Below, one piece after another: positions 10,853 to 63,118 of a stretch of DNA of 64,000 bases. The number at the start of each line of letters is the position of its first letter. The stretch's first letter is position 1. The stretch lies in contig OZ024746.1 of the NCBI GenBank assembly GCA_964016885.1, forward strand, positions 24,366,001 through 24,430,000. Direction: 5' to 3'. This stretch comes from Eledone cirrhosa. Taxonomy: Eukaryota. A program made the translations under genes and the position numbers. A model generated the notes under the pieces. That model was not told the origin of the DNA. It did no database searches and saw nothing but the letters and a program-made list of their open reading frames with translations.

Positions 10853-12997
10853 ATGCCCAATATTTATTTTAAACCAAAAAAAAACATGGCTACAAAAAAG
10901 AATTTTCACAAGTCACTCCCACTCATTCCGTTTTCTTCTTCCTCAATCGTCACTACACCAGAGAGAAGATTGTCTCTCTCCCTCCCTTCTCTTTCGCAAG
11001 CGACGCCAGTAAAGAAAAATAGTTTCCAAAATCACGTGCAAAACGTGGAACATTTCTCCACGACGACGACAACGACGAAAAAGGTGTGCGGTAAATACGA
11101 AAACCCATTTCATTCGTCTGACGTCATGAATAATAGCAGTAGCAGCCGTAATAACAACAGCAGCAGCAGCAACAGTGACAAGGAAAACAACAGTAGCAGC
11201 CGCAACAGCATCAGCAGCAGCATAAACAACAACAGCATTAGCAGCGACAGCAACAACAACAACAGCAGCAGCAACAACAACAACAACCACAGCAACAGCG
11301 GCGGCGGCAGTCGTAGTACCAGCAGCAACAACAAAAGTAACAGCAACTCTGACGACGACAACAACAACAACAACAAAGAAAAACCAATCTCGTTTGCAGG
11401 TATCGCAAAGAACCTGGAAACCATCCTTATAACAAATGAGGAATTACAGTAAGCAAAGAAGATGGTGACGAAAACTGGACACCGAGCAATCTGCAAGGCA
11501 GCCGAACATTTTTTCGAAACCCAACAGCACTGTACGGTCACGCACCGTACAGTAAGCACAAAATCCCGTAGGGTTGAAAGGGCCACAGAGGCTCAAATAC
11601 AAAAAGCCTTAGGGTCTGTGTGGCAGCGGAAAACGCATATCACCCGAGGCAAGAAATATGCCACCGTGGACCTGCTTTTTGCCACACTCCAGGAGGCAAA
11701 GGCTCAATCCTTAGTGACCCTAAGGAGCGTGGAAATGGTGTTGGTGCCCTCCTACTGCGGACAAAAAATTGTGAGGGTCAAACTGACCCACGTCCCCCTT
11801 CCCCGGGATGGCCCCTTCTTGGCTGGCCGCGTCTGTCCTCGTCGGAATCGAGGACAAAACAACTGTACTGCAAGTACAGAAAAAAGTACGAGAAGATTGG
11901 GTCGGCACCTCCATTGAGATGTTAATCCAAACCAACCAGGAGTGCATCAAAGCTATACCGGATGTGATAGACTTCGATAACGGCACTCAACTGCCCATAA
12001 GTGTTGAGGGCAAACGCCCGAAATGCTTTCGCTGTGGATCGAAGACTCACCTCAGGGCCTTCTGCAATGAGAACACCCTGAGAAAGGAGAAAACCCCCCT
12101 CCTTCCGAAACCGGCTCCACTGCTACCAACAACAGGACAAGCAGCGACCAGGAAGGATAGGTCCGTGGCACCCATACCCACGCCACGGAAATCAAGAACA
12201 GCAGCAGCAGTGGAAGTATTAACAACAACAACAGCAATACCAACTGCAGCTGCAACAGAGATTCCACTGCAAACATCACCAACAACAACAAGTGAAAGAG
12301 TGGAGCTGGTACCCCTCCCCGACCTCACAGAATCGGACATGGAGTGTGATGGCAAAAGGTCGCAAGAAGGCACAAACGCAGAAGCAGCGCATCGTCGCCT
12401 TCGAAAAGGGAGGAAAGAAACGAAAAAAGGGTAAAGGCTACTGCAAAAAGATTTACAGCAGCAATACCACCAACACCATCACCACCCACACTAGCACCAC
12501 CATCACCACCGACGGCAACCCCACCGCCAACAACAATAACACCTTCAACACCACCACCACAAGCACCAACATCGCAAACACAACAAAACACACACACCCA
12601 GCAACAACGACAAGAAAATAGCAGAACCACACCCCACCCCCAGAAAAACAAATGCACAGCAATAAATACACATAACAATAAATTAATGACTTACATAATT
12701 GAACACACAGACATTTCACAGCACGACTACATAATACCAGCACCAATCAAAACACCAACGAACATAAGACTGGTAAAAATAGCACAGAAACAATACACAA
12801 ACATTAAAACGAAATTCCCCAACGCAGTTGGTGATTTCAGAGACCTAGGAGGGACGCTCAACCGGAGGGTATATTCAGATATACTCACAGAAGAGCCGAC
12901 GACCAGCCGAAGGGGCGATTCAACGGTCCCTTCATCAGACGATCACGTGAAAAGGGATGGTGAAACCATCCTTCCTCTGCGAGAAGAAGTAAGGTAA
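10853..12997 (+). pseudogene. LINE ORF1 (gag-like) with nonsense and frameshift lesions
   Basis: In-frame TAA at 11450-11452, frameshift near 11800, and CFRCGSKTHLRAFC zinc knuckle. AAC/AGC/ACC expansions. The 3' boundary is approximate. Confidence 0.75.
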
Positions 12998-13031
12998 GTG
13001 GTCTTTCCCATCTTTTCCACTCCATTTCAAC

Positions 13032-16000
13032 ATGACCTCATTCAGAATAGGCAGCATAAATGCGTCATGGAAGCAGGGCCACCTGCTCAACGACCTCAGG
13101 TGACTAAACATAGATGTAGTGGCCATCAGCGAGACCAGAATCTCCGAAGCACGGGCCTTCGCACCGATCTTCGGCGGCTACGATGTGTACGCATCTACCA
13201 GCCGTACGGGATCGGGGGGGGGGGAGTTGCTGTGCTTTTTCGGAGAGGTTTGGATCTTGCCATACGGGCCATCTTCCTGGACCCAGAAGGTAAGTTGGTG
13301 GTGATGGACGTGACCAGCGGAGACGGGCAAGCTTTCAGGTTAGTGGCCGTCTATGCCCCGACAGGAGCAGGGCGGCCTGATTTCTTCCGGCGTCTGGAGA
13401 CCTTTCTTGGAACGTCCCGCTCTTTAGTGTTAGTGGGCGACTGGAACGGGATCTTAGATGCACGCTGGGATTGTGTGGGATTAGTGGATAGGGGAGGAGG
13501 GTGCAAGAGTCTCACCAACCTGCTCAGGCGTTTTGAACTGTCTGACAGGTACCGATTGGATTTCCCGAATGTACCAATGTGGACTTGGACAAATCGCATA
13601 GGGTCATCCAGATCATATCTAGATAGAGTATTTTGTAGGGAAATAGATAGGTCTAGCATAGGCTGTCCACAATTCAAGATAGTCAGCTACACGGACCACA
13701 AATTCGTGATCTGTGTGCTTGACTTAGATAGGCTTCATAGACGAGGACCCGGCTACTGGAAGCTAAACGCGTCCTTACCAGCGCGCAAGGCCTACAGAGA
13801 CCGGATTAGCGAACTAGTTAAGCGGGCGTTGACGGGGGCCATCGTCAACAACAAGTGGTGGTTTGCTCTGAAAAGAGCAATTAGAATAGAGTCCATTAGC
13901 TTTAGTAAGGCTTTAGCAATAGAGAAAAATAGAGCAGAGGGAGAATTAGTTAGAAAATTAGACGAGGCGCTTTGCAAAGGCATCGCGACCGACGTACTTG
14001 CGGTGAAATTGGCCCTTGACCAATTCTTCAATGCAAAGCACGAAGGCTGCGTTGTCAGAGCTAGGATGCGTGCTCTCAGACACGAGGGGACGAAAGCCGT
14101 TCAATGGGCCCGAGTGGCGGAGGCGCGTCGTGGCAACAAAGCCACGATCCGGTCTTTGGTGGACCGCGACGGGCGCATGCTACTCGATCCCGAGCAAATG
14201 TGTGAAGCTTTTCAGCGACACTTCGCTTAACTGTTCGGGGGCAGCGGCGGGCCGGATTGAGGGATGGACTTTAGTGTCTACCTCGACGGACTGCCGCGGC
14301 TCTCGGCCACTGAGGCGGAGTGTTGCGAAAAGCCGATAACAGCCGCTGAAGTACGGGAGGCAATGACTGGCTGCACAAGGGGTAAATCGCCTGGTTTGGA
14401 TGGTCTGCCCTATGAACTTTACGTACAAATGCCAGACTTGTTCGGAGGCCTCTTGGCAGACGTCTACTGCAACTGGCAACAGAACGGGAGAATTCCCAGC
14501 TCTGTGAGCCGAGGAGCGGTGGCGCTGCTGAGAAAGGATCCAAACAAGGGGGATAACATAGATAATTTTAGGCCCATAACTCTGCTAAACACAGAGTTCA
14601 AGATTTTGGCCAAGGTGCTAGCAAAGAGGTTGGCGCTTGTCATTGGTTGTCTGGTGGGAGAGGCGCAGATATGCGCCATTCACAACAGATCCATCCACGA
14701 CAACCTCCACCTCATGCGATACATCGTAGAGGGTGTAGCTAGGGAACCTGGCACGGGTGGGTCTTTGATAAATTTAGATCAGTCGAAAGCCTTCGATAGG
14801 GTCGACCATCGTTACCTAGCGGCAGTCCTGAGGGCGGCTGGCTTTGGGTCCGTCTTCAGAGGCTGGATCGCTGCCATGCACAGCGACATCTGCTCTGTGG
14901 TGAGAGTGAACGGTCACCTTTCGGAACCGTTCAACATCATGCGCTCGGTCCGCCAAGGATGTCCCCTCTCGTCTCTCTTGTACGTATTGACTCTCGAGCC
15001 ATTACTGCACAAACTGGAGACGTTGAGGGGGGTCCCGCGCGAACTAGGATGCGGAAGATCTGTGTCAGCATATGCGGACGATGTCACCGTAGTGGTGTCG
15101 AACGCCAAACACATCGAGGCGATCGGCACTACACTAAGAGAATACGAAGCGGTGACAGGAGCAATGATCAACCAGGAAAAGTCATTGGGCCTACAGCTCG
15201 GCACCTGGAGAGGCAGGTCCATGCCGTCCAACAGCGTCGTCGGGCGCTGGACGGACGGACCGGTTGAATTGCTAGGGGTCTGGTTCGGTCCGGACATCCA
15301 GACGGACAAAAACTGGGACGAGGTGACGAGCAGGGTGGCCTCTCTCACCCAGAAATGGGCCGAGAGGAAGCTATCCCTAAAAGGTCGAGCGGAGGTGGCT
15401 AACGCGTACATCGCGTCCGTCATCTACTACCGCCTGACCGTCGTACCTTGTCCTAAGCCCCGCCTGACTGCGCTGGAGCGTTTGCTCTTTCGCTTTTTGT
15501 GGAAGGGACGCGCTCCGATGGTCAGGCGGTCCATCTGCTGACAACACCCGCTACGTGGAGGGCTGGGCATGCCGTGGCTGATGATGCGCAGACACGCGCT
15601 CAGGCTACGACATCTCCACCTCTTCCTCGACGGTGATCAGGTGTGGTCGCCGTTTGCTAGACACGTCTTTCCCCAGCTCGTCTCCTTGACGGAGCTGCAG
15701 TCCTGGGTCAAGAGAAGACCGAGAGGGAGCGCTTGGAGACTGGAATGTTTTCAGGCGCTCACAGCCCTCGACCAATCGGGAAATGTGATCGGTGGAAACT
15801 CCACCTTGGCGTTCTATAGAGGATTAGTGGAGGGGAAGAGCGACGACGTACTTGGAGAAACTCTAGGCGTCGACGAAAATCAACTAGCCAATCTCTTCGG
15901 AAGGACTTTCGGGCCGGGGCCTATGGACAACTTCCAGAAATCCCTGGCCTGGCAGTGCTACCGGGGAGCTTTGCCAGTTCGAGATAAACTCTACAGGCAT

Positions 16001-16438
16001 GGAGGTGCCGTCAGCCGGGCATGTCCGAGATGCGCGCAGGACGACGAAACCGTCCTGCACGCACTCGTCCAGTGTCCGAGCATTGCTGACTTGTGGGTTT
16101 ATATCGAACACCTGCTGTCACGTGTAGGACGGATCCAGTTATCAGCTGAGTCCATCGTGAGGATTGCCCCGCCCTCTTCCTTTAGCCGGGAAGGGAAGGC
16201 AGTTTTTATCCGTCTGGTGGACATGGCGAAAGAGATAGTATGGTGGACACGTTTGAAAGGGTTGAAGACGAGCACTTACCTCTTCGGTGATGCTCTGATT
16301 GACTTTTTCAAATTTCATTTGAAAAGGAAAATCAGAGTAGAGAGGGAAGTGCTCTCTTCCCAGCATTTTGTTGAAAGATGGGTGAGAGAAGCAAGTATGG
16401 CCCGAATGAATGGGCCTTCTCTGAGTATGTGTCTGTAA
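13032..16438 (+). pseudogene. LINE ORF2: AP endonuclease, reverse transcriptase and C-terminal zinc motif
   Basis: Motifs MTSFRIGSIN.., VAISET, VYAP, GDWN, YLDR, TDH, GPGYWKLN, KSPGLDG, FRPITLLN, LDQSKAFDRV, QGCPLS, YADD and CPRC..ETVLHALVQC. Frameshift at poly-G near 13215 and in-frame stops near 13101, 14228 and 15539. Confidence 0.92.
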
Positions 16439-46622: not shown

Positions 46623-49600
46623 CATACAAGCGCTGCCATGTCTTCCATGATTTCAGCAGTGTTGAGTTCACAAAAAGCTAGGAACCGACTTCGCGTTCTT
46701 TAAACTTCAGGTGGGAAAATCACACCAGCTATAAAAGTAACCAACATACTAACACAACCAGAGAGGGCTCTTGTCATTCAGCAAAACTTAAACCAACGGC
46801 TTCCTCCTCTGCAACAACGACACTACTTTAGCTTATCTATTACAACTCGAACAATAAGACATAGCAAACACGAATTCTTAAATATTCAATGACGCAACTA
46901 ATTGTGTTAATGATTCAACTATATCTTATCACGAATAGGTTTTACAGAAATCACATCTGTGTTCTTGTGGAGACTACTCAGAAACTCTGACATTAATTGT
47001 TTTAATGTAAATTAAATATCATTCTGAGAGAGAGGCTATCTTAAAGTTCGTCTTTAAAAAAGATCACCAATGTTGGAGGCGACGCCATATATTGTCAGCC
47101 ATTAACAAGGTTTTTCCTGCACATTGCAGCTACGAAAAAATTCAATAACAGAAATTTTAACTGCTATATAGCTGCTCTTATTTTTACCCTTTCTTCCCTT
47201 ATTTCTGTTTCTTTTACCCCCGTTTTCTTTCTTGATTTTAAAGGGAATTATATATCTATCCCAGTCTGTCATAGCTTACTGACTCTACGGACTTTTGAAT
47301 TGATTAATTGAACAGACAATAAAAAATACTCTTCGTGTTGATATTTCTTGTATGTAATCTGCAATCAGTAACTTTTAGTTCTTTAAGTGGAACATTTCAC
47401 CATGTTCTCACAGTGAAACAACTCCTATATCGATTCGTCAAAATCGATTGATTTTATCAGAAGAAAATATATGAATTGTAATTCGTAACACTGACGATGA
47501 CTTCTTTACTTCTTGTCTTTCACGGACAATATTTGTATTACAATTTCTATGGAGACTTCCGGAATTCTTGGTCCACCGACTACATCCCTACTATCGGAAT
47601 GCCGCTGGTTACCCGCAAGTGTAAGCTCCGCGATGTGGAGTGGCTGTTCCAGCGCGTCTCTCTCGCCATCCTCTGAAGCAATGTTTTCTCTATCCTGTCT
47701 GCCGGGAACACGACACACCCGACATAGAGCAGAAGTAATGTGACAGTCTTCAAACGAAGGGGTTAATACTGCTCACACACACGACAATTTATAAGATATG
47801 TACACATATGACATATAAAATATATACAAATATACCATATATAGAATATATATATATACCTGTAATTCAATGGGTCAGCCTTGTTGTCGCATACTTTGTC
47901 ACACTAAATTTGCTTGAGAATTATATTAAGGGTGCACCTGTCTGTGGAATTTTCAGCCACTTAGACGTTAATTTCATTGATCGAACGACTAAACATTCAT
48001 CGTCGAAACTGATGGAGGTCCTTTCCAGATCTATATGCCATCCCCACCCACCCCGTTATTTATAAGACGTGTATATGTATCATTGTTCCATACTGTCCAG
48101 CCAAAGGAGGAGAGGTCCCCTTCTTTTTTCCCCCCACTTCCCGTTTGTAAATATGTATGGGTAATAGAAGTAGGCTTCAACCAAGTGACGTGACATTGGC
48201 TCTGGCTGTCCCCTTCAATAAAAATAACATACCTTTAACTACAACAAACACACGCAAATAAAGTAACCACCGCCAGGTGCGGTCCCCTCACTAGTTTTAA
48301 TTCCTTTTTAAAATCAAATGTATTTTTTATAAAGATAACGAATTGGTAGAGTTGTTAGTACGTAGAACTAAATATCTTTCCGTGTCTATTCCGCCGGTCT
48401 TTGATCTGAGTTCAAATGTCTCCGTGCAGAATTATGATCAAAAACATTCTCTCCGTGACCATTACATAGTGTATGTTTATTACTATATTATCCAACGCGT
48501 CCTGCCTCTTCTAAGTCAGTATGATGTAATTTGAAGGAGTATTTGACTACTATTTCTAACAGATTAAATGACCACATAATAACCTTTTACCAGACATGGC
48601 TTTATAGTTAAGACGCTCAATATCTGAAGTAAAAGAATAAGGAATTCATTTCTCAATACTGATGAAGATTTAGCAGAGTTCATCCTACTTAGTAATTTAG
48701 TTCCCAAGAGTTGTTCCCCTTAGATCGTATAGAAATATGAAATTGTGATTTATAGAGTCGTTACAATTTATAATAATTGTTTCTACTTTTGACATAAGGC
48801 CAGCAATAACTCAGTGCATTACTGGTACTTTATTTTATCGACCCCGTAAGGATGAAAGGCAAAGCAAAGTTAACTTCGGCGGGATTTGAACTCAGAATGG
48901 AAATGGCCGTAACTCTATGCATCAAAGCATGGCGTCCGACCCTCTGCCGATACTGCCAATCCAATGAGTGGAGGTAGAATGAACGAATGGTTGAGGAGTT
49001 TTCTTCTCAATCATAAGGTCCCAGGATCGATTTCATAGCGTGTAATCTTGGACACCTACAGACAACCAATGTCTTGTAAGTGAAATTGGGTAGACAGAAA
49101 CAGTTGAGAAACCCGTTGGAAAGTAAGTGCATCTATTTTCCATGTTTGCAGTGGATCCCAACCTTTTATGTACCATAGCCCAACTTAACATCTGCCTCCT
49201 TGATATGAAAACAGCGATGATCAACTGCAAAGTGTAAACAAATTGGCGTATAGGTGGTGACAGAAGCACAGTAACATCTGTAGACGTGAGACAGATGTTT
49301 CCGACAATAATGTGTACCAAAGTTGTTTTGGTGTAAAAGTAATAAGGTAAAACTTGAAGTTTGTTCTCATTAAAATAATTTTCAAATTGGCCAGATTCCC
49401 CCTAAAATATCAAAATTGTCAGCCTTATCATACGGTGTCACGTTGAATCTTCCTGAGAATTACGTTATGGGTACATGCTTAGACGTTAATTTCCCGTTAA
49501 ACCGACATTTATTTCTACAACAATGTGGAAAAAATGAAAAAGAAAAATTCCACAAAATCCCAGACATCATTCACTTATCGATTTGGGTAGAGCCCGTCAA

Positions 49601-49899
49601 AAAGGACCAAGGAAACAATGTTTCCATTGGTGATACTGTCTACCGATCACAACTCCTGGCAGAATGAGCAACGTGATACAAAGTGTTTTGCTCAGACATA
49701 ACGCACCGCCTGGTCAGGGAATCGAACTCACAACCTCACGATTGCGAATCCAATTCTATAACCACTAAGCCACGTGCCTTCCCACATACATATATATAAC
49801 AAAAAAAAAAAATTATTTCTCGTTCTAGCATAGCAGATACATAACTAAGTATGTATACGTACATTTTATTTATATATTTAGAGAGAGAGAGATTTTCCT

Positions 49900-51225
49900 A
49901 ATAATGGTTATGGTTTCTAATCTAGGCACAAGGCCAGCAATTTGAAGGAAAGACGAAAATCGATATGAACCCAAGAAGGATGACAAAGTTGACACATGGG
50001 ATTCGAACTCAGAATGTAAACAGTCAGAACAAATACCAGAAAGCATTTGTCGGATGCTCTAACAATTCTGCCAATCCAGCGTCCTTTCTGGTTAATAATG
50101 GTTTTTACTATAAGGCACAAGGCCAACGATTTGGTGGGGAGGGGAAAGTCGATTAAATCGACCTCGTAAGGCAAGGCTAACCTCGGCGGGACGTACCTCA
50201 ATGCCACAAAGCATGTCCTACGCTCTACTGATATTACCAATCCACTGCCCTCTTTCTGGTTAATAATAATTGTTTCTACTTGTTTGCACAAGGCCAACAA
50301 TTATCCCAGTGTATTACTGGTACTTTATTTTATCGGCCCCGTTAGGATGAAAGGCAAAGTTAACCTCGGCGGGATTTGAACTCAGTCCGTAAAGGGACGT
50401 AACCGTGCTGCAAAAATAATAATTGTTTCTACTTTTGGCACAAGGCCAGCAAATTAATCAGTACATTACTGGTACTTTATTTTATCGATCCCGTAAGGAT
50501 GAAAGGCAAAGTTAACCTCGGCGGGATTTGAACTCAGATCGTAAAGGGACGTAACTACGCTGGAAAGCATGTCTGGCCCTCTATCAATTCACCGCCAAAA
50601 AATAATAATTGTTTCTACGTTTGGCACAAGGCCAGCAATTACCCAGTGCATTACTGGTACTTTATTTTATCGACCCTGTAAGCATGAAAGGCAAAGTTAA
50701 CCTCGGCGGAATTTGAACTCAGAATGGCAAGGGTCGTAACTCTATACGTCAAAGCATGGTGTCCGACACTGCCAAAAAATAATAATGATTTCTACTATAG
50801 AGACAAAGCCAGCAATTTTGGAGAGGGGAAAGTCGATTAAATCAAACCCAATGCATTACTGAAACTTTATTTTATGGACATCGCAAGGATAAAAGGCAAA
50901 GCTAACCATAATAATAATAGTTTCTACTTTTGGCACAAGGTCAGCAATTATCACAGTGTATTACTGGTACTTTATTTTATCGAACCCGTAAGGATGAAAG
51001 GCAAAGTTCACCTCGGCGAGATATGAACTGACCATAAAGGGCTGTAACTCTTTGCTGCAAAGCATGGCGTCCATCCCTCTACCGATACTGCCAATCCACC
51101 GCCCCTCAAATAATTTGTTTCTACTTTTGGCACAAGGCCAGCAAATTATCCAATACATTACTGGTACTTTATTTTATTTTATAGACCCCGTAAGGATGAA
51201 AGGCAAAGTTGACCTTGGCGGGAAA
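49900..51225 (-). mobile_element. Head-to-tail chain of about 8 SINE family A copies
   Basis: Unit tails at about 49900, 50093, 50260, 50415, 50600, 50778, 50908 and 51108, with variable 5' truncation. Confidence 0.88.
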
Positions 51226-54200
51226 TACTGATGAAAAGTTCTGATACTAACCAGACCGAGATGTTTCTAGTTGAAGAGACAGGAACATATACTCTTCTAC
51301 CACTGATGTAGGTGCCCTGGAAGTTAATCTGTTGTCCTAGATAGATACCGTGAGTAGCTATAGTCTACTGTTGTAAGCAATCATTGCAGTTTCATTAGCC
51401 CATAGTATTAAATTTCAACAGCAAGCCACTTCGTGTCTCCTCCCGAAGTTGGGTCACCAAAACATTAAAACAGGAATAAATTGAGTTAAAGGGAGGAAAC
51501 TTAGATAATTCCAATACGTGGCATAGGAAATGTTTAGTATTTTATTTTATTGTAAATCTTTTGATTTAGGCACAAGACCAACAATTTTTATGGAGGGAAA
51601 GTCGATTAAAACAACCCCGTAAGGATGAAAGACAAAGCTAATGTCGGCGGGATTTGAACTCAGAACTACAACTAAACGCCACAAGCATATTGTCCAACGC
51701 TCTACTGATATTGCCAGTCCACCACCCTTACTATAGAACTATAATAATAATTTTTAAAAAATAACCATCTTTTAGGCACATTACTTAATAGGCTCTTCCT
51801 TTTTCAAGGCTGTGGTGTGAGGAGGAAGATTTGGATGGTGGTGGTGAAAGCAGACCTCAGGAGGCTGAACCTCACAAAAATGACAAAGGAAAGAAACAAG
51901 GAGGGATGCTGTAATGGAAAAGGCTCATCTAAGCCATGCAAACATTGGAAGACATAACACTACCACAGTGGCAACTGTAATAAGAACACAAAGTTATAGA
52001 TGAAATATGTTTTATAATAAACAAAAAATAAGAGGAATAGGCAATAAAAATGTTTCATATATTACAATTGACAATTAACACGTTTGTTCCCAATTAACAG
52101 GATACTTAACCTGTTTATATAATGATGTCATAACTCAGTCTTTATAGCACACACACATATACACACCATAAGTTATTGTCTTTATATAATTACACATATA
52201 TCATAACCCGTTGTCTTTATATAATAACTTATGTCATAACACCCACACACCTCATAACCCATTGTCATTTCAGCAGCAAAGAAATACAAACGAAAAAGAA
52301 TCATGGTTAATGGGAACAGAAATGGCTGCTTGGTTAAGAAGTTTGCTTCACAATTACATGGTTTAGGGTTCAACTGCTGGCACCCTTGGTCAAATGTCTT
52401 TTAACCAGAGCTTCAGGTCAACTGAAAACTCATGAGCGATATTTGGTGGTGGATGGAAACTGTGTGGAAGCCCATTGGAAGGCCTGTTTCTGTTTGGTGA
52501 TATGGTAGACTTAATGTGTTACTGATTTAACACTACCATCACCTAGCATTTGGGAACCTTTAGCAGAACCCACAGTTGCATTTGGACAAGGATTTTTGTC
52601 TGTGAATACCTTTATCACACCTGTCATGGAGGCCCTTAAAGGGATCATGAGTATGGCCCAAACCCTTCACACTGATTAAGCTATATATACAAATGATATA
52701 ACAGTCACTAGCCACAAGAGAAATGTGTTTTGTACAGCAATGGTTTGAAGAAAATATGTTGAATTTTAAATATCAGAAACAACTGAATATTACAATAATT
52801 TACTAATAATCCCATATCATTGAAGGAAAGGAAAGGAGTGGATCACTAAATTGGACCAAAGAAACTGTTTCTTTTGGTCTTTCCATAGCTGCTACTATCT
52901 GCCTGTCACAACTCATGGCAGGAGCAGATGGGATTTGAAATCAGGATGTTCAGAGCTGGATCAGATACTTTAAAATATAACGTCACACTTTAACAATTCC
53001 ACCAATCCACTAGCTCTAAATTGGAAATTTATTTATAAACCCTGGAACAAATGCCAATGTTCAATTCATTGCTAATTCACTGTCAAATATAACACTGAAA
53101 TGTTTTCAAAAACTTGGGAATTGATTCAGGTCCAAAGAATATTCCAGAATTATATTTCTTTTAGTCAGAAACCCAAGTTATAAAAAGTAATAAAAACCAC
53201 ATACTAAGTACCCTTCAGTTAAACAACTAGTTTGTACTAGGACAATTAGTGTTGTTATAGCACACACCTATGTAGATTTAGCTGACTTCCTCAAGGTGTT
53301 TTAATGATAGGGGTTCTAGTTCTGTCATGTTACAGCTCACAGCTATAAGTCAAGCTGGCCATGTACGAGTTGTTATAAAGATAGGGGTCCCTGATCTATT
53401 GTTGTTGTTGCTACAGCTCACTTTCGTAGGTTTAGCTAGCTTCCCACATGGGCTCCAGTCACTCTTCCCTGGACTGGCTGCTTCTGGTACTCATGTTTTA
53501 GGATCTGCAGGCCTTCAACAAAGTCCCAGCAATGTGGACCACTTTGTGTCCATGATGGAATGGAAGGTTGGGTGAACCATCAGGGCACCTTCTCGGATCA
53601 TTTTCCACTCACCAGTGGTCTCAAGCAGGGCTGTGAGTTGGCTCTCATACTTTTCTCCCTATACCACTCCCATGATTAACACGATACCCCTTGACAGCAC
53701 TGGCATTGACATCAGATATAGATTCAATGGCAGACTCTTCATCCTCGCTCTCATACAAGGAGTACCATCGCCCACGTGCAAGACTTCAGTATGCCGACTA
53801 TAATGTGACTGCGGACCAGACTACTATCAACTTGTACAACAAGGCTTACAAACGTTCAAGGCAATTCTGAAATTAGGTGTGCCATTCAGAAAGCATGTGG
53901 CTTGTGGACCGCAGCTTGCCCATGGCTGGTATATACCATTAAAAACTGACAGTTTTGTTTTGGGACATTTGTATTTCGTTAAAGAACCCCCCACCCCTCC
54001 TAATGAACCATAATTGAAATAGGAATGAAACTTAGTGTCAATGAATGTTATGTACACTGTTTATATTATTGTCAATTTCTACTGTTCTCACTCTACATTA
54101 CTATAAAGAAACAGCAGCTAGTATTGTTTCTAATATATGTCACATTTAACCCTTTCATTACCATTTTTCTAATGAAATATACTATTTCTAACATTAATAT

Positions 54201-55058
54201 TTTCATTACTAAGAAAGTAATTTAATGGGTTTTTTTTTTATATATAACATTATGCTGGAAGATTTTAATTTTAACAAGAGCCCTTTAACCCTTTACTCTA
54301 TATTTTCTTGGTAAAGGCTTTATCTCACATAATATCAAATCTATGAGATTTTGATATTTATTTTAAGAACAATACCATATCAGTATGAGCAGCTGGTTTG
54401 AACAGAAAGAGGTGAAAGAATTCTGGCAGGATATGGCCAGTTTAAAATGCTTGTTTCTGTTTCATAAAACCAGAACTGGTAACAAAAAAGTTAAAACATC
54501 TACAATAAAATTTTCACTGTAATCATGTTAAAACTAATTTGACATTGAAATCTTCAGTAGCTGATGTAAGCTAGGGCAGAGAAATCCAAAACCCAGGTTT
54601 ATCCACCTCACTGTATTCTTATTTTTTCACAAATATTCCAACATTCATTAAACATTTTTTTCCTCTTTTTCAGTATCAAAAATTTTTCACCATATCATTA
54701 TCCTTTTCAACAGAGAAAAACGTAAAAATAAATTTCATCTTTGATTCTTCCGTATGAAAGAAACGCAGGCTTATCTATATTTTTAATGATTTGGCTAGGT
54801 TAAACCTAGCTGTAAATTTACCTGTACCAGTGGCAGATATTTCATTTGTGCCCCTATACTCAGTTTACAGTGTATATATACAATTTAGAATAAGTACACC
54901 ATTATCCCCACATGTCATGATAGGTGACTAAATGGAATTAGCATCAGGAGGAGCACCCTGTCATGTCATAAGACATTATTTCAAAAAGGAGCTCCCATAA
55001 TAAGCATGTAACCTTTGATGAGACCCACATGGCTAATCCTTGCTGCTGACCTCGATAC

Positions 55059-57230
55059 TCAGTCACTATCTGAGTCATCCGACAAGTTGACAACATTAGA
55101 AGAGGCCTTCAGTTTATCCTTACAGATTATTTGACTAGTTACATAAATACACTTTGACTTTCCAGGATGTTTTACTTGAATATGTTTCAAAATTACCCGC
55201 CTCTGGCTGTTTTTCGCCTCGCAGTGTGGACAATGGACATACTTCAGTAAGTTCAACTGCAAGTGCTGCAACAACTCGCTGCTGCATTGAAATAGGAGAC
55301 CACAGTAAGCACAGCAGAATTCTGGCTCTTCAGAATGAACGGATTCATTATGTTGTACAAACATCTTGACAAGGTTAGTGTTGAAACCACACATGGAACA
55401 AGAATAAAGAAGGAACATGTCTGTAGAAATATGAGTAGATAAGTGTTTTAGAAAGCAGTCAATAACAGGAAATGCTTGGCCACAATGTGCACAAACATAA
55501 TCAGCTTTGTTTTGACTATGTAGGTTACGCATGTGGTCTTTAAATTCCTCTAGAGTAAGGCTAGAGAAAGAACAGTTTGAAAAGCCACATATATAAAAGT
55601 TACCTCCATAGAGTTCATTTTTCTCTTTAGGATAAAGATTTGCATTGTTATTGGAGGTCATTGAAGCAGTCATCCCTGACTTAACTAGAGTAACATTTTC
55701 ACTGTTAATGTTTGAAGAAACTGTTAAACTAGATTCCTCAGTAACAGATCCTTCGTTGGGTATCACATTAGAAGGGAGAGATTTTTTAGTAGGCATCCTA
55801 ATTTCACATTTAGTTGCTCCAGATAATTGATTACTTGACAACGTATTTATGGCAATGTCATCAACTCCTTTAGTATCTGACCCGAATTTATTCTTAAGTG
55901 AGGGAGGAGGAGGTTGTGTTTGTTCCTCATCATCATCATACATCAGATCTAAATCAATAATCTTGGAACCAGGAATGTCACTATTGGTGTCTCTAACCGA
56001 CCAAACTTCTCCCACCTTGATGTCGTTGCAGCTATCAGATTCTTCAGACACTGCATCCTGTTCGGCTAGCTTTGCTGAAACATGAGATAATGTGTCCTCG
56101 TCAACTGGTTTAGCTGGAATATCAGATTGATGAGCAAGTAATTTAGAAATGGTTTTTTTATCAATGAGTGACCGGCTGAAGGAAGTTGTAGGCAAATGGT
56201 TATATGATTCAGTGGGGTTATGTTTCTGGATATTTATGCCCATTACTTTTGGATTTGATGCAGGAGGGTTTGGATTTGATGCAGGAGGGTTTGGATTTGA
56301 TGCAGGAGGGTTTTCATTTGATGCATCTGTCAATGTTTTACATGTATAAATATTTTTCGAGAGTATATTAGGAACATTTACATTAGGAACTACATTTGAG
56401 AGAGCCGAGTTAGACTGAACAATGAATGGTGAGATATTTCCTGGAGCATATATGTTGGAGAATGGTGTAGTTGCAATGAGATTCATTACATTAGGTTCAA
56501 GAGAGTTGGCAAAATTTGGGCTATATGGTATTATTTTGTATTTGCTAGTATTAATTGGTGAGACAACAGGTAGAGAAGGTGATACCAATTTAGGAGGGAG
56601 TAGAACTGTCACAAAGTCTTTATTTTGGTTATCAACACTTTGGTTAGCCTGAATGTTACTTGCAAGTGCATAGGGAGTAAGAGTTGTGGTGGTTGCTGAC
56701 TGTACATTAGAAGACAATACTGATGGTTGAGTCATTGATGTGTTTTGAATAGAGCCCACAGATATTGGTTTAGCTGAAGGTGTAAGAATGAGTGGTTGAT
56801 AGCTAAAGGATTTACTTGTGCCTGGGATATTAATAATAATCGGTTGCATAGCATCAGTAGATTTCACTGAAACTTGAGATGTCTGTACTTCAGATGGAGC
56901 ACTAACAATAGGGATATTCTGTTTTGAAGGGGGCGTTGAATGGCCTTTTGGTAATATATTTGGTAATATAGTAGGTAATACAACAGTATGCTTCTTTGTA
57001 GGAGTATTAGTTTTTTTCTGTTTAGTGAAGAAAGATGCGTGCTTATGTGAGGAATTAACACGTGCAGTTGTTGGTGGATTTATAGGCGAGTCTCTACGTG
57101 AAGAGTCAGTGTAGGTTTGTTCTTTGTTTTTTGGGGTCAACTCTTGAGACCCGGAGTCAGTCGAGGCGTCACTGATAATTAGAGAATTAGATTGTTCCTG
57201 TAATCCATCTAATTTCAGTTGGCTGTCTAG
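55059..57230 (-). CDS. Zinc-finger protein, C-terminal segment (about 723 codons): S/T/P/N-rich region plus about 5 spaced C2H2 fingers, in frame with the upstream ORF
   Basis: Stop-free frame from 57230 (LDSQLKLDGLQEQSNSLIISDASTDSGSQELTPKN...) to TGA at 55061-55059. Fingers CGFSNC..H..H, CAHC..H..H, CSMC..H..H, CAYC..H and CPHC..H..H. No TGEKP linkers. Confidence 0.85.
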   Translation of the reverse strand, partial: LDSQLKLDGLQEQSNSLIISDASTDSGSQELTPKNKEQTYTDSSRRDSPINPPTTARVNSSHKHASFFTKQKKTNTPTKKHTVVLPTILPNILPKGHSTPPSKQNIPIVSAPSEVQTSQVSVKSTDAMQPIIINIPGTSKSFSYQPLILTPSAKPISVGSIQNTSMTQPSVLSSNVQSATTTTLTPYALASNIQANQSVDNQNKDFVTVLLPPKLVSPSLPVVSPINTSKYKIIPYSPNFANSLEPNVMNLIATTPFSNIYAPGNISPFIVQSNSALSNVVPNVNVPNILSKNIYTCKTLTDASNENPPASNPNPPASNPNPPASNPKVMGINIQKHNPTESYNHLPTTSFSRSLIDKKTISKLLAHQSDIPAKPVDEDTLSHVSAKLAEQDAVSEESDSCNDIKVGEVWSVRDTNSDIPGSKIIDLDLMYDDDEEQTQPPPPSLKNKFGSDTKGVDDIAINTLSSNQLSGATKCEIRMPTKKSLPSNVIPNEGSVTEESSLTVSSNINSENVTLVKSGMTASMTSNNNANLYPKEKNELYGGNFYICGFSNCSFSSLTLEEFKDHMRNLHSQNKADYVCAHCGQAFPVIDCFLKHLSTHISTDMFLLYSCSMCGFNTNLVKMFVQHNESVHSEEPEFCCAYCGLLFQCSSELLQHLQLNLLKYVHCPHCEAKNSQRRVILKHIQVKHPGKSKCIYVTSQIICKDKLKASSNVVNLSDDSDSD

Positions 57231-57902
57231 TCACTTGACTGGTGGAACACACTGTTCCCTATATAAGTTATCCTTCAAATTATTGTTCCTCGGCTTACAT
57301 ACATCTGAACATAGCCTCACAGCAGACATGTTTTTCAGCATTGACAGAGATGACTGAGGGATTTTAGAATCTGTAACAGTTACAGTATCTGGCTGGGTAA
57401 CTGATGTTGAAGAGAGAATCATATTTTGTTGATCCACATGGAAATCAGTGACAGGAACTGCGGTTGCCTTTTCAGGGTTTACTATATCCTCAAAAGGAAC
57501 AAGACTAAACATTAAATTCTTGGATGCATGTTTTACAGAATGGTGGACTTTGATAGAACTGACTTTAGAGAAATATCCACGACAATGGTAGCAGCGCAGT
57601 AGGAAAGTAGTTGTGGTGGGTGTCTTGCCTTCCAGGTATGGTTCTTCAAGCTGAAGCAGAAACTTTTTATGTTTCTTCTTTTCACTCTCAGATTGATTTG
57701 TGGTAGAAATCCTTTTTCTGTTGAACGATCGACACAAAGAGATATGTGCCTCGTATAACGCTCCATCATCTGTCGTAAACTTACAGCCAGGACATCGCTG
57801 AACACCATACTTTGACCAGTCAACAGAACCAGCTGGCTTCTCTTTAGGGATATTTCCAGAATTTTCCACCGTTTTTGACTTTTCTTTCTCACTGATATTC
57901 AT
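57231..57902 (-). CDS. Zinc-finger protein, N-terminal segment (223 aa) ending at an in-frame TGA in readthrough context
   Basis: ATG at 57902 in good context (ccaaaATG) with an upstream in-frame stop. Fingers CPGC-x12-H-x3-C and CYHC-x12-H-x4-H. Ends AAG TGA CTA G. Confidence 0.8.
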   Translation of the reverse strand: MNISEKEKSKTVENSGNIPKEKPAGSVDWSKYGVQRCPGCKFTTDDGALYEAHISLCRSFNRKRISTTNQSESEKKKHKKFLLQLEEPYLEGKTPTTTTFLLRCYHCRGYFSKVSSIKVHHSVKHASKNLMFSLVPFEDIVNPEKATAVPVTDFHVDQQNMILSSTSVTQPDTVTVTDSKIPQSSLSMLKNMSAVRLCSDVCKPRNNNLKDNLYREQCVPPVK

Positions 57903-58094
57903 TTTGGTTTGTTTATTATCTTTTCCCCGTGGTTTCCACAGTTCACCTTCGTATCAGAGGAAGTTTCTAGATATTCAGCACATGAGAAACTCTAACAAAC
58001 CATTTTCCCCATTCCAATGTCTGAGGAACAGAATAATGTATTTTGTATGGTAACAAATAAACTGCCAAATAACATTCAGACTTTAAGATGGTTC
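57903..58094 (-). other. 5' UTR part of the large exon, preceded by a splice acceptor
   Basis: Minus strand reads ttttcttattttcttatttttcctctattttcAG|GAACC, with the AG at 58096-58095. Confidence 0.7.
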
Positions 58095-59287
58095 CTGAAA
58101 ATAGAGGAAAAATAAGAAAATAAGAAAATCATCATTTAATGTCCATTCTCCTTGCTAGCAAGGGTTGGACAGGACATCAATATCAAACCAGTACTCAGGC
58201 AGAGCAACTGACCACTCAAATAATTCCTATTCTGTTTTCTTTAACTTTAAACCTGTTGATATCAAAGCATCTGAAACCACCCTTGATTCTACAAAACATC
58301 TAGGTCATTGTTGGATAAATTTTTGTAACAAACAGGTAAGTCATATAAAGTTTAAATATTTCTGTTTATCCATAAAGTCATTACTTTTACACCTGTTAAT
58401 TTCACCTGCCCATAAAAAAAAAAAAAAATCAGGTAAAGATAGATAATTGTAAATCATTGATATTTAAACATCTGACAAAATTTCAAGTCTGCACATAAAA
58501 AATTTAACAAAATTACAAACAAATATAGTTGATAACCCTCTTGAATATGATTAACTCAAAATTATGTGAATAGATAAACATGACATTTGACAGTAATGTA
58601 AATGCTTATGGGTTTAAGTATAAGCCTAGTAGTAGAAAACTAGACCTAGGGGTACTATTTGGTACAAAAATAATATGGAAGTGACCACCCCAATAGCAAA
58701 AATATTCCTCACAATAATTAGGAGGCCTTTCCCTTCAAAACAGAAATACTGATAAAATATCTTAAACCAACACACCTAACCATGCACATCATATAATCAC
58801 ATTCAACATAGCTAAATTATAGCAATAATTGCATAAAGACAATTGCTCTTAGCAGGTACATGCTTATCTAGTAACAATACAAAAATGTATGGTCAGTACC
58901 CCTTTCACTAGCAGCCTATATAGGGTCAGTTACGGCCCTTTACGGTCAGAGTTCAAATCCTGCCGGGGTTAACTTTGCCTTTCATCCTTATGGAGTTGAT
59001 AAAAAAAGTTATCAGTAATGCACTGGGATAATTGCTGGCCTTATGCCAAACAAGATACAATTATTACTACTACAAGTATTTTCTCATTTTCTTTCCTCAC
59101 CTTTTATTTTTATCAAGTATAACAATTATATTTTATTACTATATATTAGTTTTACGTTTGATATAGTAGGAAAAGAGTCTTAACGTTTCAGACGCTAATC
59201 CATCAGAAAATAGAATGAGAAATTAAAGAAATAGAAAGATAGAGGAGAATGAGCAGTGGCATATATATATATAAAAGTAAAAGTTTG

Positions 59288-59350
59288 TATTTTATCTGAA
59301 GAAAGCGTACCAAAGTGTTTTGGTACCCTTGAAATATATATATAATAAAA
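59288..59350 (+). ncRNA. Minimal hammerhead ribozyme (family of 6645)
   Basis: CTGAAGA aagcgtaccaaa gtgt tttggtaccctt GAAA TATA TA. Confidence 0.7.
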
Positions 59351-59392
59351 TAAACATGTTTTTATAAATATAGTTTCCATTTATTTAATATC

Positions 59393-59441
<49 letters not shown>

Positions 59442-59624
59442 AGATCAAAAGATGGTTAAAGGAGTTCCATGTATTTTATTATGCGCATTTCAAAAACAAA
59501 CATCATCATGCAATAATATTTGTGTTTTCATCAGATAAAACAGGAGAACATGATATGAAGGCTAAAAAACACTTGTGGATAGTGCAGTTTTAAATCTACA
59601 TATATATATATATATATATATATA

Positions 59625-59814
59625 TAACGAAGGAAATGTGGTAAGGAACCAGGTGGACCATAACGCACCAAAGTACTCAATACTTAGGGTAGTAGAGCGG
59701 GTAATAGGAACGAGTAGGGCCCCGACGGCTGAGCTCAAGCCGTTTCGACGGCTAATTCAGTCCAGAATTAGCCGTCGAAACGGCTTGAGCTCAGCCGTCG
59801 GGGTCCTACTCGTT

Positions 59815-59819
<5 letters not shown>
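59625..59819 (-). mobile_element. Family P1 fold-back element
   Basis: Same structure in the opposite orientation. Confidence 0.65.
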
Positions 59820-59886
<67 letters not shown>

Positions 59887-59925
59887 ATGATATTAAATAA
59901 ATGGAAACTATATTTATAAAACCAT

Positions 59926-59988
59926 ATTTTATTATATATATTTCAAGGGTACCAAAACACTTTGGTACGCTTTCTTCAGATAAAATAC
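59926..59988 (-). ncRNA. Minimal hammerhead ribozyme, inverted copy of 59288-59350
   Basis: Reverse complement of the same core. A further variant lies at about 59475-59540(-) (CTGATGA...GAAATGCGCA). Confidence 0.7.
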
Positions 59989-60006
59989 AAAGTTTTACTC
60001 AAATAC

Positions 60007-60056
<50 letters not shown>

Positions 60057-61111
60057 GCCACTGCTCACTCTCGTCTATCTTTCTACATACATCCAACTTC
60101 CCTAATGTTCTACTCGATAAACACACCCAGTTGCATGGTGTAAAGTGGATGATGGCAAGAAAGGGCATCTAGCCATAGAAAGCTTAACAAACAAAGGGTT
60201 GGGAGAATCCTTCAGTTGTGTCAAAGACGTGACAACCTCTAGTGCTGGTGCCACAAGACGCACTCAGTAGAACGTGGGAGAGCCAGTCAGGGAGTAGTAG
60301 CCCCGCTTTAGAATTGATTCGGTCTTTGAAGACCTGTCCAACTTTATGGGTGAACTGAGGGAGAAACTGGTATGGGCATGTGATGTGCATGGATGATGAT
60401 CGCTGAGTGAAGTGCCAAGTAATCCCAGTGGAAGGAAGCCGCATTAGAGGAAGACCGAGGACGACCTGAATGGAAGTGGTGAAAGTTGATCTCAGGTCGT
60501 TAAAGCTCACAGAGCAGATAACAAAGGAACGCAACAAGTGGAGAGATGCTAAAATTATGATGATGGTATAACACAAACATAGCTTTGTTAAAGTTTGGAG
60601 AAGAAATCAAATAAAACTTATTCCATCCATAAAACATTGGATTATACACTACTATTAAAAATAAACATCGATTGTCGGTCTAATAAAAGTGTACTCTGGT
60701 CATTCAAGTGGAACATTTCAACTTCTTGACATCAAAATTATCTCAACCATTACTTCTCTAACTACAAAGTTATCTCTTTTGCACGCCACAATGTCTACAC
60801 GTTATTTGAGAAACAGCTAACGAGGAATCATCTTACTAGAAATAACAGGCATATATCTCTAACTGAATCTCTTGAAGAAAAAAAAATGGAAGACCAAATT
60901 GATGATTATGATGATAAATCCTATAGCGGTTTCGACGATAAGCATCCAGTCATTGGATCAACTGGACTAAGTACATGGCAGAGTGTTCCACAGACACGTG
61001 TATCCTTAACATAATTCCAAGTCAAATCAACGTGACCATTGAATTCCAGGGTACATACAATACACAGAATGATAAACAAAATGAAATGACACATTGGATA
61101 ATGACGTATAG

Positions 61112-61160
<49 letters not shown>

Positions 61161-61790
61161 GAAAAGTGTGCTTATGCGCCGAGATGCTATAAAATAGCTT
61201 ATAAAATAGGTTGAAGACCCTTTAATGACGGAAAAAGAAGTTGCCATCGGCCGCTGTGAGAAATGGAACCTCATATCTCCAAGATATCATTTAGTTGGTG
61301 GGATTGATCATACGGTTGTTTGTTGGTGATAGGTAAGATTTGAGAATAAAACAAGTGTAAAATTATGGATGCCCAGTTCACTAAAGGAGCACTGTTTAGA
61401 TAGAAGCAGAGGTGAGTTTATTTAGCCCTTTCCCCCCACTCCATGTCATAAAACGACGATACTTCATGTTTGGTTGTTAATATATGTAATATTTAGGAAA
61501 ATTTATCCGACCCCCTAATGTAGAGCATGTCCCCACGTTCATAATTACAGGTTTTACAATGTCAGTTAATCATATTAAGCAGACCATCAAATTTTGTTTA
61601 CTAACTGCTAAGAATTCATGAAAAAAAAACAACACATTTATCACAACCAGAACACATTTGTAGAATTAATTACATATAAATTATATATGTCTATATACAT
61701 ATATTGCTCACGAGGTCTTCTTAAAATTTTCATTATAAAATCCGAACATCTCCAAGTGGAAACAAACGCCTCACCCGATCGATTAAAATA

Positions 61791-62155
61791 TTTAACCCCT
61801 TTTTCATGCCCAATCGCCTGAAACTATGATATTAAGTTGTTTATTTTAAATGTTTATATTTATCTAAAACCCTTATATTTGATGCAAGAATCTTCGTTCC
61901 AAACACCAGATAATGAGAAAATTACTAAATCTCTCCAAATTCATAGAAAATCTTAGGCAGTGTATTTCATTAAAAACATGGTAACGAAAAGACTTTATAT
62001 TTATGTTAAAAGAAAACTCCATCATAATTCATTGTAAAACCTTTATGTTCCAAACACCAGATAAATCAAAAGTTGGTTATATTACTAAATCCCTCTGAAT
62101 TCTTGAAAAACAGGTAATGTCTTTCAATAGAAATATGGTAACGAATGGATTTAAT
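61791..62155. mobile_element. Decayed TTAA-type (piggyBac-like) non-autonomous repeat
   Basis: TTAACCC start and internal gttccaaacaccagata duplicated. A relative at about 100-407 ends in AGGGTTAA. Confidence 0.4.
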
Positions 62156-62651
62156 AAAAATCAAATCAACAATTGTTGTAAAAGTAACTTTATCGACAAT
62201 GGTTAAAACCTTTAGTATTTCTGTCTACGTTATAGTGGGGCCGTTTTAGTAACACCTTCTTTATAAATAGGAAGTGGAAGGATATACTTTTACATGGTCA
62301 ACAGTCCTACTACTACAACAGTCAGGCAACTAAATAACCCTTAAATCACATTGGAAAGAAGGAAAGAAAACATTCAATGTACACCCACATACACACAACG
62401 AAATCTCGAACGATATGTGGGAACTGCAGCGAGACAGCAAATTCGAAATACAAAAAAAAAAAGGAAAAAAACATTATAAATTTATCAGAAACGACGCATG
62501 TTCTGTTGTATAAAATATATTTTTGTCCTTTAATAAACTACTGAATGTATTTAAATATAACCAATGTTTCTAGGGTAAGAAATCAATAAGGTCGCTTAGA
62601 AACATCAATATGTTTAATAATTAATGTTATCAAAGTGATAAACATACTCAC

Positions 62652-62700
62652 AGGAAATGACTGGCGTCAGTGTAACGAAGAAATGACAACACACAATGAA
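62652..62700 (-). other. Probable non-coding first exon of the zinc-finger gene
   Basis: Minus strand ...cagtcatttcct|GTGAGTatg donor at 62651, just downstream of TATA-like and Inr-like (TCATT) motifs. Pairing with the 58095 acceptor is inferred. Confidence 0.55.
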
Positions 62701-62800
62701 AACAGCTTTATATCACTCGCTCTATATATATAGCGAGAACAACGTGATGACGTTTAATTCATTGATTGGTCACATCTTTTCCTAGTAGCCGGAAGTTTAT
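62701..62800 (-). promoter_or_regulatory. Pol II core promoter cluster: ETS (CCGGAAGT), CCAAT box (GACCAATCA), CRE half-site (ACGTCA), TATA (TATATATA/TATAAA)
   Basis: Motifs occur in canonical order on the minus strand within 100 bp upstream of a GTGAGT donor. Confidence 0.55.
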
Positions 62801-63118
62801 TCTTTAAAAATACAGTGTTAGTTTCGTATAATCTTTTTTATGAAAATGTATTTCACTACTAAATTATATATTATTTTGGTATTAATGTATTTTTACTGAA
62901 GATATATTTTTTATTATTAGTTTTGAATGAAATATCATACAAAACGATGTTGTTTATTCAAGTTCACCATGACCGAGTAGAATTCTGTTTAAAAGTGTTC
63001 CAAACCGCGACAATCCCGTTATTTGTGCATCTAGAACTGAACTGTTGGTAGAACAGCGTCTCTATCTCGGCCTTTCTACTATATATATATATAACCAGTG
63101 TATTCTTCTCACCCATAT

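Follow-up and report, generated by a model that had tools for sequence, protein, structure and literature searches.

Functional readthrough of stop codons is known chiefly from viruses and insects and from a small number of vertebrate genes. The heptamer UGA-CUAG is an experimentally tested readthrough motif (PMC4132726, PMC5868278). Efficiencies of 1.3 to 6.7% were reported for 17 human contexts, and OPRL1 reached as much as 31% (PMC5868278, PMC4132726). In the vertebrate genes that carry this context (AQP4, OPRK1, OPRL1, MAPK10, MDH1, VDR), a purine directly precedes the stop, 12 nucleotides (nt) 3′ of it suffice, and the extensions are short, 13 amino acids (aa) in MAPK10 and 67 aa in VDR (PMC4132726, PMC5868278). 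Long second open reading frames (ORFs) are found in Drosophila kelch (782 aa) and headcase and in alphavirus nsP3-nsP4, together with a stem-loop near the stop and raised nucleotide conservation 3′ of it; in kelch the stop context is UGA-AUG and the stem-loop has a long loop (PMC3159437; bioRxiv 10.1101/2020.06.22.165522). In alphaviruses, readthrough increases as much as about tenfold with a stem-loop that follows the stop after 7 to 9 nt, a spacing common to the alphavirus, furovirus, and kelch stimulators; for kelch the stem-loop is a prediction (PMC3159437). Readthrough of kelch is high in neurons (bioRxiv 10.1101/2020.06.22.165522). Here we describe a zinc-finger gene of the octopod Eledone cirrhosa, interrupted by one in-frame TGA-CTAG, that lies in a 64,000-nt stretch of assembly GCA_964016885.1 (contig OZ024746.1, positions 24,366,001 to 24,430,000, forward strand; hereafter the window). 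The best explanation of this gene, and a probable one, is programmed UGA readthrough, the translation step being inferred.

The first ORF (ORF1), on the minus strand at 57902-57231 of the window, encodes 223 aa and terminates at a TGA followed by CTAG (heptamer at 57233-57227). The second (ORF2, 57230-55059) continues in the same frame for 723 open codons, and translation with the TGA read as X gives a product of 947 aa. All of this agrees with a preliminary description of the locus, as does the junction, which reads CCA GTC AAG TGA CTA GAC AGC. The 693-aa ORF that the same description began at 57140 is in the right frame, but its first codon (57140-57138) is TTG and not ATG; past the stop, an ATG does not appear in frame until 56849, and the 127 codons up to it are still alignable to homologues. 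The coding part of the locus is a single exon, and searches with the junction DNA and with the finger region of ORF1 found one copy in the 3.0-Gb genome. The anticipated two plus five zinc fingers were recovered in number, as seven motifs with Cys2-His2 spacing, two upstream of the stop and five close to the C terminus; the first (57794-57732), however, is of the C2HC type, the sixth ends in Asn, and the Pfam zinc-finger matches fall below the curated cut-offs. The second finger (57593-57528) is of the C2H2 type. The finger profile matches the PRDM9 and CTCF finger arrays, while comparison with a protein atlas yielded only generic C2H2 clusters and no family name. A long low-complexity linker, which includes an in-frame tandem repeat of 3.7 copies of a 21-nt unit (56325-56248), leads to the cluster of five fingers (55589-55167).

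The seven-base context is identical to that of the vertebrate genes and is likewise directly preceded by a purine; the octopod locus differs from them in its 724-aa extension, which holds five of the seven fingers, and in its predicted hairpin. The 11-nt spacer is somewhat longer than, but similar to, the 7 to 9 nt of the alphavirus, furovirus, and kelch stimulators (PMC3159437); compared with kelch, the predicted hairpin is compact, and ORF2 represents the C-terminal portion that the ancestral protein already had. The likeness to kelch and headcase proposed earlier holds for the long second ORF but not for its threefold excess over the first, since kelch consists of 689 + 782 aa (bioRxiv 10.1101/2020.06.22.165522). 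The same cluster of five fingers occurs in a giant, multicluster C2H2 family of molluscs (Argopecten XP_069136052.1 and five E. cirrhosa paralogues), in which finger 1 is present near the N terminus of long members and is shared with 12 of them; relative to this family the octopod gene is shorter and split. The Drosophila sechellia pseudo-pseudogene Ir75a reportedly has a premature stop in an ancestral ORF, likely suppressed in translation, that is recent and limited to one species, whereas two octopod superfamilies share the position of the stop described here, which lies in a conserved, signal-like block.

The stop is real in the DNA and is neither an assembly artefact nor a private nonsense allele. 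Four runs of the same species (X1, X2, and X4, from one sample that is possibly the source of the assembly, and X3, from another sample of the same study) gave contigs that fit the junction without difference or gap, and the heptamer is likewise unchanged in a second species. A run of restriction-site-associated DNA sequencing (X6) left the junction uncovered. The fit of the X3 contig begins exactly at 58094, with 15 unmatched letters ahead of it, whereas the X1 contig extends to 58157. Position 58094 is the exon start at the putative splice acceptor before the coding exon (58120-58094), which has the best pyrimidine tract among the 170 AG sites scored. X3 is not on record as RNA; because its contig begins at this acceptor and the X1 contig runs past it, X3 is probably RNA-derived. 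The X3 contig is unbroken across the stop and retains the stop's A; if it is RNA-derived, neither splicing nor editing affects the stop in the main transcript, although contigs conceal rare spliced or edited forms. This contig also covers 55058-54398, the likely 3′ untranslated region, without a gap. From base composition, CTAG is expected after a given stop with a P of about 0.003, and it follows 3 of the 2,159 TGA triplets in the window. A scan with the junction motif returned seven loci, all attributable to chance (best tblastn E value, 4.0).

The position of the stop is old and common to octopods of two superfamilies. A search with ORF1 among proteins of 122 to 391 aa gave three matches in 61 candidates, from Octopus vulgaris (244 aa), Argonauta hians (248 aa), and a further octopod source (244 aa), and all three terminate in VPPxx at the alignment column of the window's ORF1 end. 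The 947-aa product matched 3 of 7,575 candidates (Octopus bimaculoides, Octopus sinensis, and the further source), each covering ORF2 only. In O. vulgaris the two halves are consecutive accessions (CAI9724056.1 and CAI9724055.1), as they are in A. hians (GAB1609816.1 and GAB1609817.1); annotations treat ORF2 as a protein in its own right. Octopus and Argonauta provide the closest named proteins, and the fossil lower bound for the split of these two genera is about 29 million years (PMC12682272). Across octopods, the cluster of five fingers is nearly identical. No joined octopod protein was present in the octopod annotations found by the 947-aa, profile, and fused-form searches, so that major splicing around the stop is unlikely. 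The search for longer fused forms gave one protein, P0143, among 7,999 scored, which is weak evidence, and a metagenome scan with the ORF1 alignment gave 264 pattern matches and no relatives. The C-terminal VPPxx of ORF1 (57252-57234) is present in four of four octopod sequences, while the preceding 60 residues are variable; a nascent-peptide signal at the stop could reside in its two prolines.

Outside the octopods, the two halves belong to one chain. A profile search covering 1.84 billion representatives identified P0010, an outgroup protein of 2,053 aa that matches the ORF1 fingers (E value, 2e-35) and the C-terminal cluster (E value, 1e-52) in order. A tree built from the cluster with 45 of the 50 rows (5 were excluded for a short or absent cluster match) places P0010, on a long branch, as the sister of the octopod clade (support, 97/85). 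P0143 (919 aa) and P0158 (1,181 aa) have no stop and extend far beyond the ORF1 fingers, and, of the 50 scored, another 12 long proteins, one of them from a scallop, combine finger 1 and the cluster in one chain. The E. cirrhosa genome itself contains five paralogues of the cluster, all without the ORF1 fingers, in unbroken frames of 1,886 to 3,833 codons. These lie on contig C22 at 8.60-8.61, 10.01-10.02, and 20.02-20.09 Mb; three of them end at GTAA, likely splice donors. Since the outgroup orthologue is unbroken and the octopod genes are split, this distribution suggests that the stop arose within a gene that already existed. Past the cluster, P0010 runs on for some 700 residues, while the octopod protein stops just after it (at 55059), so that the octopod gene was shortened at its C terminus as well.

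The sequence around the stop is invariant between E. cirrhosa and the second species (organism B, run X5), which is about 7 to 10% diverged (about 7% over the gene). A block of 84 nt (57252-57169), comprising six codons before the stop, the stop itself, and 20 codons after it, has no listed difference, against 41 places listed for the 472 nt as a whole, or 46 if the contig's own count is used; the probability of a clean run of 84 nt anywhere by chance is 0.003 to 0.009. Organism B carries TGA-CTAG and has no insertion or deletion between the stop and 57140, and 30 inserted letters in ORF1 preserve the frame. The expectation for the block is 7.3 non-synonymous and 2.1 synonymous changes, with none listed; because neither class of change was listed there, constraint on the protein and constraint on the RNA are inseparable within it. 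A predicted hairpin of 17 bp with small bulges (57219-57171; arms 57219-57202 and 57188-57171) follows the stop after 11 nt, with pair probabilities of 0.84 to 1.0 and a z score of -3.4 in 61 nt; in a separate comparison it came second of 186 windows along the gene. The junction region thus seems to be under constraint, judged from this pair of species. Selection on both sides of the stop, which the preliminary description had named as a check, is borne out for the C-terminal fingers, where the ratio of non-synonymous to synonymous differences (pN/pS) is about 0.16 on a partial list from one species pair and indicates purifying selection, but not for the linker around the stop, where it is about 1.0.

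These observations can be combined as follows. The octopod lineage would have acquired the TGA in the long linker of an old zinc-finger gene. CUAG would weaken termination, and the predicted hairpin 11 nt downstream would further stimulate readthrough. A near-cognate tRNA would then insert Trp, Arg, or Cys, the residues known from UGA readthrough. Ribosomes passing the UGA part of the time would produce, from one unspliced exon, a 223-aa protein with two fingers and a 947-aa protein with seven, and the ratio of short to long would set the amount of full-length DNA-binding protein, possibly in a tissue-dependent manner as in Drosophila neurons. Readthrough is favored by the motif, the hairpin at 11 nt, and the ancestral need for the second half. 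The readthrough proposed in the preliminary description is accordingly strengthened by the shared position of the stop, the invariant TGA-CTAG region, the predicted 3′ hairpin, and the unbroken outgroup orthologue; it is weakened by a downstream ATG in six of seven sources, which points to a rival that the description had not seen.

Several other points also weigh against readthrough. Its prior is low because abundant readthrough has been reported, among the species tested, only for Pancrustacea (PMC5100048). The identity of the TGA and the sequence of the spacer were read in two species, the other sources providing protein ends only. One of the 41 differences from organism B is unplaced, and the five more are known solely from the contig's count. 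On either side of the block, the linker shows the pN/pS of about 1.0 given above, from one species pair, with the frame still kept, and the synonymous sites of the block are not significant by themselves (2.1 changes expected, none seen; P = 0.12). At -15 kcal/mol the hairpin is only of modest stability; it lacks significance when 100 nt are folded (z score, -1.4) and is without covariation because it is invariant in the two species.

The strongest rival, itself unlikely, is gene fission, with ORF2 made as a protein of its own from an ATG 90 nt past the stop, either because ribosomes re-initiate on an mRNA with two ORFs or because a minor mRNA arises through an acceptor near 57171 or an internal start. 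Methionine occupies the aligned codon 255 in six of seven sources (O. bimaculoides, O. sinensis, O. vulgaris, the further octopod source, A. hians, and organism B, which has ATG where five annotated homologues start with Met); RefSeq gives O. bimaculoides one 691-aa product under three accessions, and the invariant block terminates 2 to 3 nt beyond a CAG at 57172. The window species, however, has TTG at this codon, so that a UUG or a later AUG would have to serve, and the first ATG after the stop, at 57208, is out of frame. Leaky scanning is implausible because fifteen ATGs lie between the ORF1 start and codon 255, and re-initiation is inefficient after an ORF of 223 codons. As to a minor mRNA, the 57171 acceptor ranks 40th of 170 by pyrimidine count, and X3 gives one contig with no loose end there. 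Separate initiation also leaves TGA-CTAG and the invariant codons before the stop unexplained. Jungreis and colleagues recognize dicistronic transcripts by a fully conserved ATG and a spacer that looks non-coding (PMC5100048), a pattern that fits only imperfectly here, as the ATG is lost in the window species and most of the spacer is invariant. A retained in-frame intron, spliced out in some tissues with removal of the stop, is improbable. The preliminary description had seen no sensible intron, and strong sites are indeed lacking, yet 101 formal in-frame GT-AG pairs of 40 to 400 nt could remove the stop. One of these (57234-57172, 63 nt) has ends near those of the invariant block, and minor splicing would escape contigs, which drop rare variants; its donor, on the other hand, lacks G at -1 and +5 and ranks 16th of 158 GT sites, the pair ranks 12th of the 101 chance pairs by a consensus matrix, the predicted hairpin would bury the acceptor, and both the unbroken X3 contig and the absence of a joined protein from the octopod annotations found speak against splicing.

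The remaining explanations are far less probable. Assembly error, a private nonsense allele, or decay of the second half has been largely refuted: the linker pN/pS of about 1.0 would fit decay, but the stop is present in four runs and a second species, three other octopod sources end at the same point, and the finger cluster is nearly identical across octopods. The chance that adenosine-to-inosine editing changes UGA to UGG in part of the mRNA is slighter still. Editing is heavy in coleoids (cited in PMC5868278), and the stop's A is paired with a probability of 0.28 to 0.88, depending on the folded window. The editing branch of the preliminary description nevertheless finds no support in the X3 contig, in which the A is read; the stop also lies outside the stable hairpin, and editing would require no conservation of CUAG. 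The base 5′ of this A is G, the least favored neighbor of a target of ADAR (adenosine deaminase acting on RNA). A selenocysteine codon is hardly credible, although SEPN1 likewise has a stem a short way 3′ of an in-frame UGA (PMC3159437). The UGA sits in a linker and not in a redox motif; Rfam gave no match to a selenocysteine insertion sequence (SECIS) family in 51000-63000, only repeat-driven matches below threshold, and a loose SECIS pattern had five matches downstream of the stop but none in the likely 3′ untranslated region (55058-54398). The Rfam negative is weak because a genome-wide SECIS_1 search gave nothing, controls included.

Other features of the window were also recorded. The leader contains four short upstream ORFs (27, 6, 3, and 2 codons) at 58075-57983 (minus strand), ahead of the ORF1 ATG. 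A candidate donor, GTGAGT, of a non-coding first exon is at 62651 (minus strand), ~4.5 kb upstream of the coding exon, and is itself preceded by a TATA-like stretch. We also weighed readthrough of the final TGA but discarded it, the context being TGA-G and the next frame short. On the plus strand, 12350-16438 holds a decayed retrotransposon of the long interspersed nuclear element type, in which stops interrupt the single frame that contains the endonuclease, reverse transcriptase, and zf-RVT domains. Clusters of dispersed repeats occupy 48700-51700, with a 152-nt tandem unit at 50262-50555, and 54300-54450, where read depth is very high.

Mechanisms of the kind considered here are known; the present locus stands apart in its phylum, in how large its extension is and what it contains, and in its origin by a nonsense codon fixed in an ancestral ORF. 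In the literature searched, which excluded most subscription journals, we found no published readthrough case from a mollusc, octopus, cephalopod, or lophotrochozoan and no paper on these accessions. If ORF2 is instead initiated separately, the locus would represent an animal mRNA with two conserved ORFs, likewise an uncommon arrangement. It is tempting, though still doubtful, to go further and see in UGA-CUAG and the hairpin a regulated switch that arose from a nonsense mutation and has been kept for at least 29 million years, the first programmed readthrough of a mollusc, and the sign of a hidden, possibly neuron-biased coleoid repertoire that exists beside RNA editing and is mis-annotated as split genes. 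With the outgroups unbroken and the octopods split, the polarity is clear, and readthrough here was likely born by the fixing of a nonsense codon in an old gene. Because five of the seven fingers lie past the stop, the switch would control the main DNA-binding part of the protein, and because four public annotations give half the gene or two genes, similar cases may hide in cephalopod genomes.

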